A stretch of 50,906 nt of DNA from Anaerolineae bacterium (GTDB lineage Bacteria; Chloroflexota; Anaerolineae; UBA1429). Made by a program: the position numbers and the translations under genes. The DNA is taken from assembly GCA_049975585.1 (NCBI GenBank), contig JBNGEB010000001.1, positions 7,992 to 58,897 on the forward strand. Reading direction: 5' to 3'. This document shows, piece by piece, positions 44,403 through 49,711 of this stretch (position 1 is the stretch's first letter; every line of letters begins with the position of its first letter). The notes below the pieces were generated by a model. It saw only the letters and a list, made by a program, of their open reading frames with translations, was not told where the DNA came from and ran no database searches.

Positions 44403-44497
44403 GTCTCCGAGTCAAAAGGCCTAAAGGGTAACCCACGGTCGATGACCGATAGGGTTCGAGGGGAAACGCTCGAGCCTCCCGCGCTTGGAAAGGAGAT
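44403..44497 (+). promoter_or_regulatory. Structured 5' leader, riboswitch candidate copy 1 (possibly Moco-motif-like)
   Basis: A closing helix GUCUCC (44403-08) / GGAGAU (44492-97) encloses several hairpins (GGGUAACCC, GGUCGAUGACC, CGAG-GGGAAACG-CUCG). It shares the blocks UCUCCGA, GGCCUAA, GGAAACGC and UUGGAAAGGAGA with the minus-strand element at 49545-49660. Confidence 0.6.
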
Positions 44498-44517
44498 CAC
44501 ACGCTGGCGCGCTTGCA

Positions 44518-44553
44518 GCCGGCGTCGCTCCTTTGCGGCGCCGGCTCGTGTGT
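44518..44553 (+). terminator. GC-rich hairpin of the leader expression platform (terminator/sequestrator candidate)
   Basis: GCCGGCG (44518-24) / CGCCGGC (44539-45) followed by UCGUGUGU. The loop contains CUCCUUU, which is complementary to AAAGGAG at 44489-95. Confidence 0.4.
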
Positions 44554-44565
44554 ACTGGAGGAATC

Positions 44566-45939
44566 ATGGCATCCGATCGAGACCAGAGCGCACCACGTTA
44601 TCGCTTTGCCACACGCGAGCTGCTGATCATGGCAGGATTGGCCGGGCTCAGTGGCGTAGCCAGCACGGCCATCAACGCCCTGGGCGACGCGGTCCAGGCC
44701 ATCCTAGGGTTCGCGGGCACGACCCAATGGGCCGCAGGGCTCCATGTGACGCTGTTGCTGCTCGCGCCGGTTCTGGTTGGCAAGCCAGGCGCCGCTACCA
44801 TCACCGGCATCCTCAAGGGCGCCGTAGAGCTATTGAGTGGCAACACCCACGGCATGCTGGTCGTACTGGTCGACATCGCTGGGGGACTGCTCATCGACGT
44901 GACATTCCTGGCTTTCCGACGCCGCGATCGTTGGTGGTCTCTGATGGTCGCTGGCGCCATCGCCGCGGCCAGCAACGTGTTTGTCTTCCAACTCTTTGCC
45001 AGCGCGCCGGAGGACGTACTCCGCTACATCTGGGCTATCGCGGGCCTGGCCGCCGTATCGGGCGCCACTCTGGGAGGGCTGCTGGCGTACGCCTTGCTCA
45101 AGGCGCTCCGCCAGGCTGGGCTCAGCATGCCCAGCGCCGAGCGCCGCCGCCTCGCTTGGCCACAAGGGCTGGTATTAGCCGTTGCCACGGTAGCCCTGGT
45201 TGGGGGAGGGGTTGCGCTGGCACAGGCATACGCAGGTGAGGCCACGGTTGAGGTCACCGGGGCCTGCGCCGAGCCCTATGCGTACGGCCCCGAACTTGGC
45301 CTACCGATAGTGAACTTACAGCTTGAGATACAGGGCATGAAACGCAATGTCACAGGAACTCCGCTACGCGAGATCGTGGCGCACGCAACGCCAGCCCCTG
45401 GCGTCAACGCCGTGATCGTCACCGCCACCGACGGCTATGCTTTCTTTGTCACGATGGACGAGATCGCCTCCAACGACGAGCTGCTGCTAGCCCACCGTGG
45501 CGATGGCAAGAACATCAGCTATGACATTGTCGGTGCCGAAAGCCCCAAGGCTTGGGTGCGCAACGTGATCGAGCTTCGCCTGCAGGCGCAGGCCTCCGTC
45601 AAGCTCACCGGCAAGCTGGATCAGGCGGAGCCGTTCCGGCCAGCGGATTGGTTGGGGGACATGGATAGCGCGCGCGTGGACGCGGGAGAGGGCCCCACCA
45701 AGTACCAGGGCGTACCAGCGCGAGCTGTCATCTCTGCCGCAGGGCCGCAGGCCGGAGCTACCACCCTTTGTGCCATAGGCCGCGACGGAACCGTTACAGA
45801 GTGGCCGCTGACAGAGGTACTCGCCGATGATGCCATCCGCATCTGGATCGTGAACGAGCCGGACGGCACGCGGTATGCCGTAGGGAGCGCCGACCAAGAG
45901 ATCGTCGCCACAGACGTGGTCGAGCTGGCCGTCGAGTAA
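44566..45939 (+). CDS. ECF S component (YkoE-like) fused through a 7th TM helix to two tandem extracytoplasmic SUOX-fold (molybdopterin-binding-like) domains
   Basis: ATG 44566 follows GGAGGAA. The 6-TM core contains VGKPGAATITGILKGAVELLSGNTHG. A basic loop is followed by TM7 (LVLAVATVALVGGGVALAQAYA). Two repeats of about 115 aa follow, alignable to the lipoproteins at 48223-49436 (...ATDGYAFFV...WVRNVIELRL and ...KYQGVPARAVISAAG...VVELAVE). Confidence 0.7.
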   Translation: MASDRDQSAPRYRFATRELLIMAGLAGLSGVASTAINALGDAVQAILGFAGTTQWAAGLHVTLLLLAPVLVGKPGAATITGILKGAVELLSGNTHGMLVVLVDIAGGLLIDVTFLAFRRRDRWWSLMVAGAIAAASNVFVFQLFASAPEDVLRYIWAIAGLAAVSGATLGGLLAYALLKALRQAGLSMPSAERRRLAWPQGLVLAVATVALVGGGVALAQAYAGEATVEVTGACAEPYAYGPELGLPIVNLQLEIQGMKRNVTGTPLREIVAHATPAPGVNAVIVTATDGYAFFVTMDEIASNDELLLAHRGDGKNISYDIVGAESPKAWVRNVIELRLQAQASVKLTGKLDQAEPFRPADWLGDMDSARVDAGEGPTKYQGVPARAVISAAGPQAGATTLCAIGRDGTVTEWPLTEVLADDAIRIWIVNEPDGTRYAVGSADQEIVATDVVELAVE

Positions 45940-45942
45940 AAG

Positions 45943-47391
45943 ATGGCGGCCCTGATCGAGGCTACGGGTCTATCCTATCGCTACCCAGGCGCCGCCGACT
46001 GGGCGCTCGAAGGGGTGGACCTGTCCATTTCCGCCGGGGAGATGCTGGCTCTCACCGGCCCGAGCGCATGCGGCAAGTCCACTCTAGCGCTGGCCATCGC
46101 TGGTTGCCTGCACGAAAGGCCCGGCGGTGCTTGGTGCGGCACCGTCCACGCCGATGGCGTGGATATCACAACCCGTTCCCTCTATGAGAACGCCGAACTG
46201 GTTGGACTGGTCCAGCAGAGCCCAGAGGATCAGTTCTGCACGCTGACCGTCGAGGACGAGATCGCCTTTGGGTTGGAGAATCGGTGCTATTCTCGGGATG
46301 AGATGTCCCGCCGCATCGCCTGGGCCCTAGACGTCGTGGAGGCGCCGCACCTTCGGAACAGACAGCTAGCGACCCTCTCGGGCGGCGAGAAGCAACGCAT
46401 TGCCATCGCCTCTATCCTAGCCGCCAAGCCACGCATCCTCATCCTCGACGAGCCCACGTCGAACCTGGACCCGACGGCAACGCAGGCCATTCTGGAGGTC
46501 CTGGAACGCCTCCGCAACGACCAAGGTCTCACGCTGATCGTCATCGAACACAAGCTCCGGGCTCTGGCCCGATTCGCGCCGCGCATTGTGCGCATGGCGC
46601 AAGGCCATATCGTGGATGCAGACGCTCGAGCAAACGCGAATGTCAATCACGCCACCCGGATACCAGCTACGCCTGGCGATGTCGTTGCCAGGCTGGAGAA
46701 TGTCTCCCACTGGTTCAGCACGCGTCGCGCCCTGGCCGATCTGTCGCTTAGCATCCATCGGGGGCAAGTAGTGGCGCTGATGGGCGACAACGGGAGTGGC
46801 AAGAGCACGTTGCTCCGCTGTCTCATGGGGCTCATCCGTCCGACCGAGGGACGGGTCATCGTGCTGGGTCACGACCAGCCCGTCGTTTCGGTGCTGGCCA
46901 AACGGGCCGGCATCGTGTTCCAGAACCCCGACCATCAGCTCTTGGGAGACTCGGTCTGGGATGACGCCATGATGCTCGCTCGGAACACGGGTCAGGCGGA
47001 GCTCGTGCGCCCCCGGGCCGAGCGCCAGCTTCGCCAAGGGGGCCTCTGGCACCGGCGCGCCGACTCGCCCTGGACCCTGAGCTACGGCCAGAAGCGCCGT
47101 CTCAATCTCGTCACAGCCACCTCGCACGACCCGGACCTGGTGCTGGCCGACGAGATTCTCATCGGGCAGGACCCCACCAATGCCCGAGGCTTGATGCAGC
47201 ACCTGCGGATGCTAGCGGATCAAGGATCAGCCGTCGTTGTGTCGCTTCACAACCTGGCCGTCGCGGAGCAGTATGCCGATCGCGTGCTCTTCTTGGAGGG
47301 GGGACGACTCGCGCTGGACGGTTCCCTCGACGCCCTGCGCGCGTTCCTTCTCAGCACCGGACACGAGGCGTACCTGGAGAGTGCCCAGTGA
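45943..47391 (+). CDS. Fused double ECF ATPase (EcfA-EcfA', YkoD-like)
   Basis: Two ABC cassettes: GPSACGKST / LSGGEKQRIAIAS / LILDEPTSNLD, and GDNGSGKST / LSYGQKRRLNLV / LVLADE. Confidence 0.88.
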   Translation: MAALIEATGLSYRYPGAADWALEGVDLSISAGEMLALTGPSACGKSTLALAIAGCLHERPGGAWCGTVHADGVDITTRSLYENAELVGLVQQSPEDQFCTLTVEDEIAFGLENRCYSRDEMSRRIAWALDVVEAPHLRNRQLATLSGGEKQRIAIASILAAKPRILILDEPTSNLDPTATQAILEVLERLRNDQGLTLIVIEHKLRALARFAPRIVRMAQGHIVDADARANANVNHATRIPATPGDVVARLENVSHWFSTRRALADLSLSIHRGQVVALMGDNGSGKSTLLRCLMGLIRPTEGRVIVLGHDQPVVSVLAKRAGIVFQNPDHQLLGDSVWDDAMMLARNTGQAELVRPRAERQLRQGGLWHRRADSPWTLSYGQKRRLNLVTATSHDPDLVLADEILIGQDPTNARGLMQHLRMLADQGSAVVVSLHNLAVAEQYADRVLFLEGGRLALDGSLDALRAFLLSTGHEAYLESAQ

Positions 47392-49436: not shown

Positions 49437-49488
49437 CCTACGTACCTCCTTGCAGTTTCCCATCGTGCCGGCCCGTCAGACACAAAGA

Positions 49489-49525
49489 GCCGGCGCCTCT
49501 CCCGCACAACAGAACAGGCGCCGGC
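49489..49525 (-). terminator. GC-rich hairpin of the leader expression platform, copy 2
   Basis: On the minus strand: GCCGGCGCC, a 19-nt loop, GGCGCCGGC, followed by UCUUUGUGUCU. It has the same stem core as the hairpin at 44518-44545. Confidence 0.45.
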
Positions 49526-49544
49526 TCGGACCGTCGCAACGGGT

Positions 49545-49660
49545 TCTCCTTTCCAAATGCGGGGGGCGGGCGCGTTTCCACGGCCACCGTTCGGCCACCC
49601 ATGAGGATGGCCACGACCACACGCCATAGCAATGCCTTAGGCCATGTGGTTCGGAGATCC
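49545..49660 (-). promoter_or_regulatory. Structured 5' leader, riboswitch candidate copy 2
   Basis: The minus strand reads GGAUCUCCGAACCACAUGGCCUAAGGC...GGCCAUCC-UCAU-GGGUGGCC...GUGGAAACGCG...CCCCCCGCAUUUGGAAAGGAGA. It has the same ordered blocks and closing helix (UCUCC/GGAGA) as copy 1. Confidence 0.6.
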
Positions 49661-49682
49661 TATTCGATTGTCTGACCTGGTC

Positions 49683-49711
49683 ATCATAGCAGGGCATCCG
49701 CTCCGATGCAA
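49683..49711 (-). promoter_or_regulatory. Sigma-70-like promoter candidate for the lipoprotein unit (TTGCAT-17-TATGAT on minus strand)
   Basis: The reverse complement of 49706-49711 is TTGCAT and of 49683-49688 is TATGAT, with a 17-nt spacer. It lies about 20 nt upstream of leader copy 2. Confidence 0.45.

Follow-up and report, generated by a model that had tools for sequence, protein, structure and literature searches.

A riboswitch-controlled energy-coupling factor transporter with sulfite oxidase-fold modules in Anaerolineae: a candidate importer for molybdenum or tungsten cofactor salvage

Transporters of the energy-coupling factor (ECF) type are marked as a class by the absence of an extracytoplasmic solute-binding protein, and several ECF importers are controlled by riboswitches for the cognate cofactor or its precursor: thiamine pyrophosphate (TPP) with ThiT or YkoEDC, flavin mononucleotide (FMN) with RibU, tetrahydrofolate (THF) with FolT, and preQ1 with QueT. 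YkoEDC of Bacillus, which serves thiamine and hydroxymethylpyrimidine (HMP), shares its gene order, the PF09819 family of its S component and the logic of riboswitch-controlled cofactor salvage with the locus described here. This locus was located around positions 44,403–49,711 of a 50,906-nucleotide stretch from an Anaerolineae bacterium (assembly GCA_049975585.1, contig JBNGEB010000001.1, positions 7,992 to 58,897, forward strand; hereafter the window, to which all positions without a locus label refer). It consisted of an ECF transporter whose S component carries two fused domains of the sulfite oxidase (SUOX) fold, two lipoproteins of the same fold, and two riboswitches of the family for the molybdenum cofactor (Moco) and the tungsten cofactor (Tuco). 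We give an even chance to the locus being a salvage importer for exogenous Moco/Tuco or a pyranopterin precursor, in which the SUOX-like modules would act as capture domains. The chance that it represents the first dedicated membrane transporter of a Mo/W cofactor or pyranopterin precursor in any organism, built as a multi-step surface machine, is placed slightly below even.

Compared with YkoEDC, the S component described here has a seventh transmembrane helix and two SUOX-like domains, and its core belongs to a small separate clade. The riboswitch is of the Moco/Tuco instead of the TPP type, and cognate lipoproteins are present, joined elsewhere by a phosphodiesterase and a CxxCH protein. 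Similar logic can be seen in the uptake of nicotinamide adenine dinucleotide (NAD) by NadN and PnuC, where a surface pyrophosphatase turns the dinucleotide cofactor into a transported form, and in the Ni/Co ECF systems with their accessory extracytoplasmic components CbiN and NikK/NikL; however, folds and substrates differ, and these systems contain neither SUOX-fold modules nor a fusion to the S component. For the riboswitch family RF01055, the accessible part of one study (Regulski 2008, PMC2408646) presents modABC as the classic target of Moco riboswitches and ties the RNAs to Moco where they contain stem P3 and to tungsten-cofactor metabolism where they lack it, by genomic correlation alone. 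Neither an ECF transporter nor SUOX-fold lipoproteins were among the downstream genes of known members given in the accessible parts of that study and of a RegPrecise-based survey (PMC3766115), and the locus further differs from known RF01055 sites in having the P3 and P3-less classes side by side. A non-catalytic member of the fold is also known: PruR of Agrobacterium and other Proteobacteria (7kos, 7kou, 7kom, 7rkb) has been shown experimentally to bind pterins in the periplasm (PMC11194511). In the searched literature no description of the present architecture could be found; an earlier bioinformatic mention is possible.

The covariance search of the whole window against Rfam returned exactly two matches, both to RF01055 and both over model positions 1–135. 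The leader of the ECF operon (44393..44512, + strand) scored 63 bits (E 6.8e-13) and that of the lipoprotein operon (49529..49668, - strand) 70.7 bits (E 4e-15), well above the gathering score of 36; our own covariance model gave 105.5 bits for the + leader. Both leaders showed the RF01055 helices P1, P2, P4 and P5 and the GAAA tetraloop. A P3 insert of 21 nucleotides (nt) was present in the - leader, while the + leader aligned without P3. The preliminary description had proposed the same structured RNA leader on both units. The common family was borne out, but the architectures differ, and the idea of one leader in two copies was rejected since stem P3 is present in only one of the two. Judged from sequence and covariance scores, the riboswitch-like leader of that description is the known Moco/Tuco riboswitch, here in both structural classes.

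The + aptamer ends 55 nt upstream of the S start and the - aptamer approximately 90 nt upstream of the lipoprotein start. A putative expression platform of the + leader (44518..44561, + strand) could be read from the sequence as a hairpin of GCCGGCG (44518–24) and CGCCGGC (44539–45), the loop of which, CTCCTTT (44528–34), is complementary both to the 3' strand of P1 (AAAGGAG) and to the Shine-Dalgarno (SD) sequence GGAGG (44557–61). The minimum-free-energy fold of this leader paired GGAAAGGAG with the downstream CUCCUUUGC, at a z value of -1.7 that is not significant and with a structure that is ambiguous on ON or OFF behaviour. Downstream of the second aptamer, a terminator-like hairpin (49478..49527, - strand) was read in which GAGCCGGCGCC pairs with GGCGCCGGCTC, followed by TTTGTGTCT; this 11-bp GC hairpin followed by TTTGTGT would be the expression platform of the - leader. 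A consensus terminator scan missed it because of its 19-nt loop, and the consensus promoter and terminator scan of the locus performed no better than shuffles.

Conservation was assessed in 80 related loci, read from the 131 species-representative genomes that encode the fused S component; all 80 belonged to Anaerolineae or Chloroflexota metagenome-assembled genomes (MAGs), including Pelolinea and Brevefilum MAGs. Rfam scanning of nine of these loci revealed 12 further RF01055 matches (60–74 bits), with matches in all nine. A covariance model built from 14 Rfam-confirmed matches and applied to the window and the 80 loci found 79 aptamers. An aptamer was positioned at most 500 nt upstream of the S gene in 65 of the 80 loci, without P3 in 58 and with P3 in seven, and divergent lipoprotein units had an aptamer of their own in the window, L057, L058, L008, L034, L038 and L056. 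Conservation of the leader in relatives was backed by covariation: 94.3% of cells could pair across the 79 RNAs, against 78.2% in shuffles and 34–45% in slid controls, and 386 double-sided changes were counted in the helices against 119 in shuffles, seen in 16 of 28 pairs.

The two convergent transcription units of the preliminary description were borne out, with all open reading frames (ORFs) at the positions given there, and its dedicated group-I ECF transporter in the order S, fused double ATPase, T was confirmed by Pfam and NCBIfam. The S component (44566-45939, + strand, 457 amino acids (aa)) matched PF09819 at 1.2e-16 and PF00174 in two stretches at 1.7e-7. It is followed by the YkoD-like A component, a fused double ABC ATPase (45943-47391, + strand, 482 aa), with two ABC_tran stretches and a TIGR04520 ECF_ATPase_1 score of 324.6 bits against a cut-off of 315. 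The CbiQ/EcfT-type T component (47388-48173, + strand, 261 aa) matched PF02361 at 5.9e-25 and has the coupling-helix motif QLARGV in its translation. The three genes abut or overlap, the start of T overlapping the stop of A.

The AlphaFold model of the S component, with a predicted local distance difference test (pLDDT) score of 80.5, contained six transmembrane helices (aa 16–183), a helix at aa 198–221 and two beta-rich domains. The six-helix core (aa 1–197; 44566..45156, + strand) was assigned to the YkoE family from PF09819, the model and Foldseek, in which its best match in the PDB was the ECF S component YkoE (5edl; TM-score 0.76, target-normalised; 26% identity). The reading as a CbiMNQO-like cobalt system, after the Pfam name ABC_cobalt, was rejected because PF09819 is the YkoE family. 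The extra transmembrane helix predicted earlier in front of the fused domains was recovered as the seventh helix of the model (45157..45228, + strand), and the loop before it contains RRR. Six-helix S components have an N-in/C-in topology, so that, with a seventh helix, the C-terminal domains are predicted to lie outside the cell. The usual lack of an extracytoplasmic binding protein in ECF transporters is thus not seen in this system, which has two binding-fold domains on S and syntenic lipoproteins. The SUOX-like modules are not solute-binding proteins of the periplasmic binding protein (PBP) fold, and the difference is therefore a departure in architecture and no evidence against ECF membership.

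The four copies of the SUOX fold proposed earlier, two on S and one per lipoprotein, were found in agreement by Pfam, hhalign, AlphaFold and Foldseek, and the similarity of the repeated domain to the SUOX/YedY fold was significant both in sequence (PF00174, down to 2e-21) and in structure (Foldseek). Domain 1 of S (aa 226–342; 45241..45591, + strand) was delimited by PF00174, hhalign and the model, and domain 2 (aa 343–457; 45592..45936, + strand) by hhalign and the model. Both were beta-rich, with pLDDT of about 85–92 and 85–95, respectively. Lipoprotein 1 (48223..48732, - strand; lipobox LAGC) matched PF00174 at 1.7e-16 and lipoprotein 2, here termed type A (48960..49436, - strand; lipobox LTSC), at 2.2e-21. 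The latter ORF could be extended to 49463; an SD sequence AAGGAGG and the NCBI model favour the start at 49436. In hhalign comparisons, the lipoprotein profile gave 97.9% against S domain 1 and 90.9% against S domain 2, and the two S domains gave 97.9% against each other. Lipoprotein 2 was modelled as a single confident domain (pLDDT 84.9 overall, above 95 in the core), and at least 1015 relatives of it were present in the protein collection.

Foldseek analysis of lipoprotein 2 revealed SoxC, SorA and YedY at TM-scores of about 0.72 (query-normalised), 22–28% identity and E values from 1e-9, and PruR (7kom, 7kos, 7rkb) at 0.65–0.73 (target-normalised) and 18–22% identity; the extra S domains likewise matched Moco domains of the SUOX family and PruR in the PDB. 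The lipoprotein profile searched against PDB sequences hit SorA at 4.8e-10 and PruR 7kos at 3.4e-5. The modules thus have the fold in common, at a TM-score of about 0.7, with SorA (2blf), SoxC (2xts), YedY/MsrP (1xdq) and chicken sulfite oxidase (1sox), and share the motifs W-x-G-V-x-L, DGY and G-P-x-R-L-V-x-P with these catalytic domains. In contrast to them, the modules have only about 130 residues instead of roughly 170–260 or more, a shortened hairpin, and no conserved Cys ligand, dimerisation domain or Tat signal.

The region of the molybdenum-ligand Cys was examined in particular. The type-A consensus reads LMEKS-GED where SUOX enzymes have this region, the hairpin of lipoprotein 2 reads MDRSEGED, and no hairpin Cys was present in lipoprotein 2, the type-A consensus or either S domain; the mature type-A lipoprotein is devoid of Cys altogether. 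Lipoprotein 1 has, in its hairpin, a C-x-C (ERCDCGDE) displaced by 1–3 residues from the aligned SUOX Cys position, in a hidden Markov model alignment that is itself uncertain by 1–2 residues, and this paralogue was limited to the clade of the window (window, L001, L003 and L057). Plain lipoprotein signal peptides were present in 64 of 67 homologues, with a loose Tat-like motif in the remaining three. Known extracytoplasmic Moco enzymes are Tat substrates that are exported with the cofactor loaded. The Sec signals, with export in the unfolded state, indicate that the modules leave the cell without cofactor; together with the missing Cys ligand, these features argue for predicted binding domains and not enzymes. 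The assignment of the conserved lipoprotein as a catalytic SUOX enzyme was rejected for lack of both the Cys and the Tat signal. Public databases list the lipoproteins as 'molybdopterin-dependent oxidoreductase', 'MsrP' or 'YedY catalytic subunit', and the S component (JGI homologues) as 'thiamin/hydroxymethylpyrimidine permease'; these names are probably misleading.

PruR was the closest non-catalytic relative of the modules, which supports binding of a pterin-type ligand. Both are small secreted or lipid-anchored proteins that consist nearly wholly of a truncated, non-catalytic SUOX fold lacking the molybdenum-ligand Cys, and both are associated with extracytoplasmic ligand binding in which ligand or information is passed to a membrane partner, as is proposed for the lipoproteins here. 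The modules differ from PruR in having K-S-x-G-E-D instead of the PW motif at 18–22% identity, in their transporter partner in place of the DcpA cyclase/phosphodiesterase, and in their ECF, NPP, CxxCH and Tup neighbours. They also belong to a Moco regulon and not to folate-branch pterins, and occur in Chloroflexota and some archaea instead of Proteobacteria. The modules are therefore described as working like PruR without being members of the PruR family.

The association of these parts was retained across the related loci. In the protein collection, the fused S component had at least 519 relatives of full length (453–460 aa), and two SUOX-like domains were fused to S in every member. The S, A and T genes were contiguous and in order wherever the contig allowed, with A following S in 68 and T present in 61 of the 80 loci. 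Synteny of the lipoprotein genes with the ECF genes was retained in relatives: a lipoprotein gene was present in 39 of the 41 loci whose sequence extends 5.5 kb or more past T, often in tandem, with up to four domains in L034 and L038. The operon in most loci reads S-A-T-X317-PDE396-lipoprotein(s), where X317 and PDE396 designate two protein families, and by this comparison of gene content the window locus is a reduced form of a larger operon. Homologues of X317 or PDE396 were found neither in the window nor nearby in the closest relatives (S at least 70% identical).

PDE396 was a lipoprotein of the NPP/alkaline-phosphatase superfamily, co-operonic in 34 of the 41 loci with enough flank, in which the metal-ligand and nucleophile motifs are kept (LDG-GY, T-YP--T, HFHGIDD-GH--GP, ADHGM). 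Its N-terminal domain probably has a SUOX-like fold too, on the basis of profile comparison (71%). X317 was anchored in the membrane and had C--CH--HG as an invariant motif; 35 of 47 members contained a second CxxCH, and two further copies of the SUOX-like fold were present (92% and 97% in profile comparison). Neither X317 nor Q130, a 130-aa protein, obtained any match in Pfam or NCBIfam. Q130, which is cytoplasmic, contained the repeat LPC...CQLG[LC]F twice, with four conserved Cys, and was encoded in seven loci (L010:252-716, L011:316-705, L012:3453-3836, L022:1879-2271, L029:4007-4543, L032:7610-7993 and L056:13816-14214(-)), always directly downstream of a Moco RNA and before S or the lipoproteins; it may act inside the cell as an acceptor or chaperone. 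In one clade, a membrane protein of about six transmembrane helices with 4Fe-4S dicluster and CCG domains, similar to HdrD/DsrK, was inserted between T and X317 and may conduct electrons across the membrane to the surface proteins. One example is a 704-aa protein with two CCG domains (L007:9929-12043, + strand), with equivalents in L005, L006, L008 and L058.

Several loci continue in the same operon into TupB, TupC and TupA, and in L037 a Moco RNA precedes TupBCA. In L041, tandem P3-less Moco RNAs (5327-5450 and 5550-5673, - strand) were positioned upstream of a gene (5151-2410, - strand) for a 913-aa Mop-type molybdopterin aldehyde oxidoreductase (NF045668, 1678 bits), which shows that P3-less aptamers are not confined to obvious tungsten genes. 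Clustering of neighbours across the 80 loci revealed no conserved Moco biosynthesis gene beside the system. The aptamer was absent from 12 loci with enough upstream sequence, and other regulators were found there instead. A PadR-family gene was present in 7–8 aptamer-less loci (L036, L046, L051, L052, L067, L071, L072, L074), where a palindrome CTATTTAC-N-GTAAATAG (CTATTTACAAAGTAAATAG) was located approximately 40–60 nt upstream of S. In three others (L015, L018, L047), a divergent GntR-HTH regulator with a PBP_like domain (PF12727) was encoded, and its sensor domain was similar, at 1e-61 to 1e-71, to the PBP domain found fused to MoeA.

When the S core was searched exhaustively, 187 representatives among 1.84 billion were retrieved; 18 of these were close (E <= 1e-30) and of the two-domain type, and a second tier of 340–392 aa had one PF00174-like domain. 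Distant loci were read in an Asgard (Kariarchaeaceae) MAG (L081), in a 1-Mb JGI scaffold, PBDC3, from an anaerobic metagenome (L082/L083) and in an ENA contig (L084); their S cores were 28–32% identical. Genes for CbiQ, for small lipoproteins matching PF00174 and for a homologue of PDE396 (31% identity, 6.5e-33) were present in both L082 and L084. L082 also has an X317-like protein without CxxCH, and L084 has three paralogous S genes and a ModA-like SBP_bac_11 binding protein. The L081 contig ends at the S gene and has only a fold-related 193-aa ORF upstream. No Moco RNA was found in L081, L082/L083 or L084. That transporter, SUOX-like modules and phosphodiesterase recur together at this distance is the strongest indication that these parts function jointly.

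With the parts identified, conserved and co-regulated as above, a mechanism of cofactor salvage can be proposed. The E. coli moaA member of the riboswitch family shows OFF behaviour, and by analogy low intracellular Moco/Tuco would permit expression from both RF01055 riboswitches. The SUOX-fold modules would then be exported unfolded via Sec, free of cofactor, as binding domains. The lipoproteins would capture the ligand at the cell surface and hand it on to the two modules that the extra transmembrane helix tethers to S, and these would feed the YkoE-like S core, with translocation powered by the EcfT/double-ATPase module. The ligand may be Moco/Tuco, molybdopterin without metal, or a trimmed derivative or precursor, for example cyclic pyranopterin monophosphate (cPMP). 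In the fuller operons, the NPP-type phosphodiesterase would trim molybdopterin guanine dinucleotide (MGD) and molybdopterin cytosine dinucleotide (MCD) to the molybdopterin form bound by the SUOX fold, the CxxCH membrane protein would maintain the ligand in its reduced state, and the electrons could come, in one clade, from the HdrD-like membrane Fe-S protein.

Uptake of the metal itself is the main rival to cofactor salvage and was judged unlikely. The system would then be an ECF-type importer of molybdate or tungstate, or of the thio- or poly-oxo forms of sulfidic anoxic habitats, with modules that capture oxyanions. A parallel exists in the control of the cobalt ECF system CbiMNQO by a B12 riboswitch, and the classic control of modABC by Moco riboswitches described above (Regulski 2008, PMC2408646, accessible part) points the same way. 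The GntR regulator of the aptamer-less loci, with its MoeA-type PBP domain, is probably an oxyanion sensor, and the hairpin motif KS-GED sits where SUOX enzymes contact the metal; however, this acidic GED motif is poorly suited to anion binding, and the documented ligands of the fold are pterins (PMC11194511). The neighbouring TupBCA genes, and the ModA-like SBP_bac_11 protein of L084, would fit oxyanion uptake, but where TupABC lies in the operon a metal importer is already present and a second one would be redundant. An organic substrate is further favoured because the S core is not CbiM/NikM-like and is a member of the YkoE family, whose ligands are organic and of the thiamine type, and because the co-operonic NPP phosphodiesterase, with its intact catalytic motifs, would make no sense for an inorganic anion.

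A surface oxidoreductase similar to MsrP/YedYZ is still less probable. Here, a pterin cofactor would be used by the lipoproteins together with the CxxCH protein and the HdrD-like protein of one clade; riboswitch control would reflect that the genes consume Moco, and the co-regulated ECF transporter would import the product or an unrelated micronutrient. Moco RNAs do also precede Moco-dependent enzymes, and the C-x-C of lipoprotein 1 is close to where SUOX enzymes have their ligand Cys; the lipoprotein that is universally conserved, however, lacks both the Cys and the N-terminal part of the catalytic domain, and Sec instead of Tat signals rule out export with a bound cofactor. The invariant CxxCH motifs of the X317 family, the membrane Fe-S/CCG protein between T and X317 in one clade, and an NCBIfam 'GEGP diheme protein' that shares the domain are consistent with redox chemistry. 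Against this, the fusion of two domain copies to S in every member ties the fold to transport, and the distant relatives keep the transporter and domain set while losing the CxxCH motifs.

Import of a non-Moco pterin (neopterin, monapterin or another of the folate branch) or of a thiamine-type ligand by PruR-like modules is very improbable: it would agree with the PruR-like truncation and PruR TM-scores of the modules and with the YkoE-family S core and thiamin/HMP permease label of homologues at JGI, but the aptamers of the 65 loci are of the Moco/Tuco type, as Rfam confirmed for the window and for all nine loci scanned with it, and never TPP or THF riboswitches, the genomic partners are W/Mo genes, identity to catalytic SUOX domains exceeds that to PruR, and the PW motif of PruR is absent.

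Several points weigh against salvage of Moco or Tuco. Free Moco is very labile, and salvage would need anoxic habitats or protein-bound donors. Compared with catalytic SUOX domains, the modules have a truncated fold, and the similar truncation of PruR fits only small pterins and not Moco (PMC11194511). The clade of the window has neither the phosphodiesterase nor the CxxCH protein, so that neither can be essential. Aptamers of the P3-less ('Tuco') and P3-containing ('Moco') classes are intermixed over the gene types without an evident rule, and the GntR-PBP_like regulator and the ModA- and TupA-like neighbours are just as compatible with a metal oxyanion as substrate.

The genes around the locus in the window were unrelated housekeeping genes. 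A second ECF module (33529-35897, + strand), consisting of a 185-aa membrane-type ORF without Pfam match, an ABC ATPase and a CbiQ-type T component, was positioned directly upstream of coaX, the gene for type III pantothenate kinase, and coaBC (36390-38638) and is probably a pantothenate-type ECF importer. Two adjoining paralogues of CbiA/ParA-type P-loop NTPases with inserted 4Fe-4S ferredoxin domains (23576-25323, - strand) were also present and are unrelated to the locus.

No transporter of Moco or molybdopterin could be found in the searched literature, and the passage of Moco across membranes in C. elegans has been attributed to 'an unknown mechanism' (PMC9793310). A riboswitch-tagged candidate importer with expressible soluble binding modules makes this passage testable. 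If the proposed salvage function is true, the ECF paradigm would be extended to tethered and free extracytoplasmic binding domains, and the non-catalytic, PruR-like SUOX fold would gain a second role, in transport. Anaerolineae are abundant in anaerobic communities and hard to culture; on the same condition, Moco would be cross-fed like a vitamin in anoxic communities, among Anaerolineae and some archaea.

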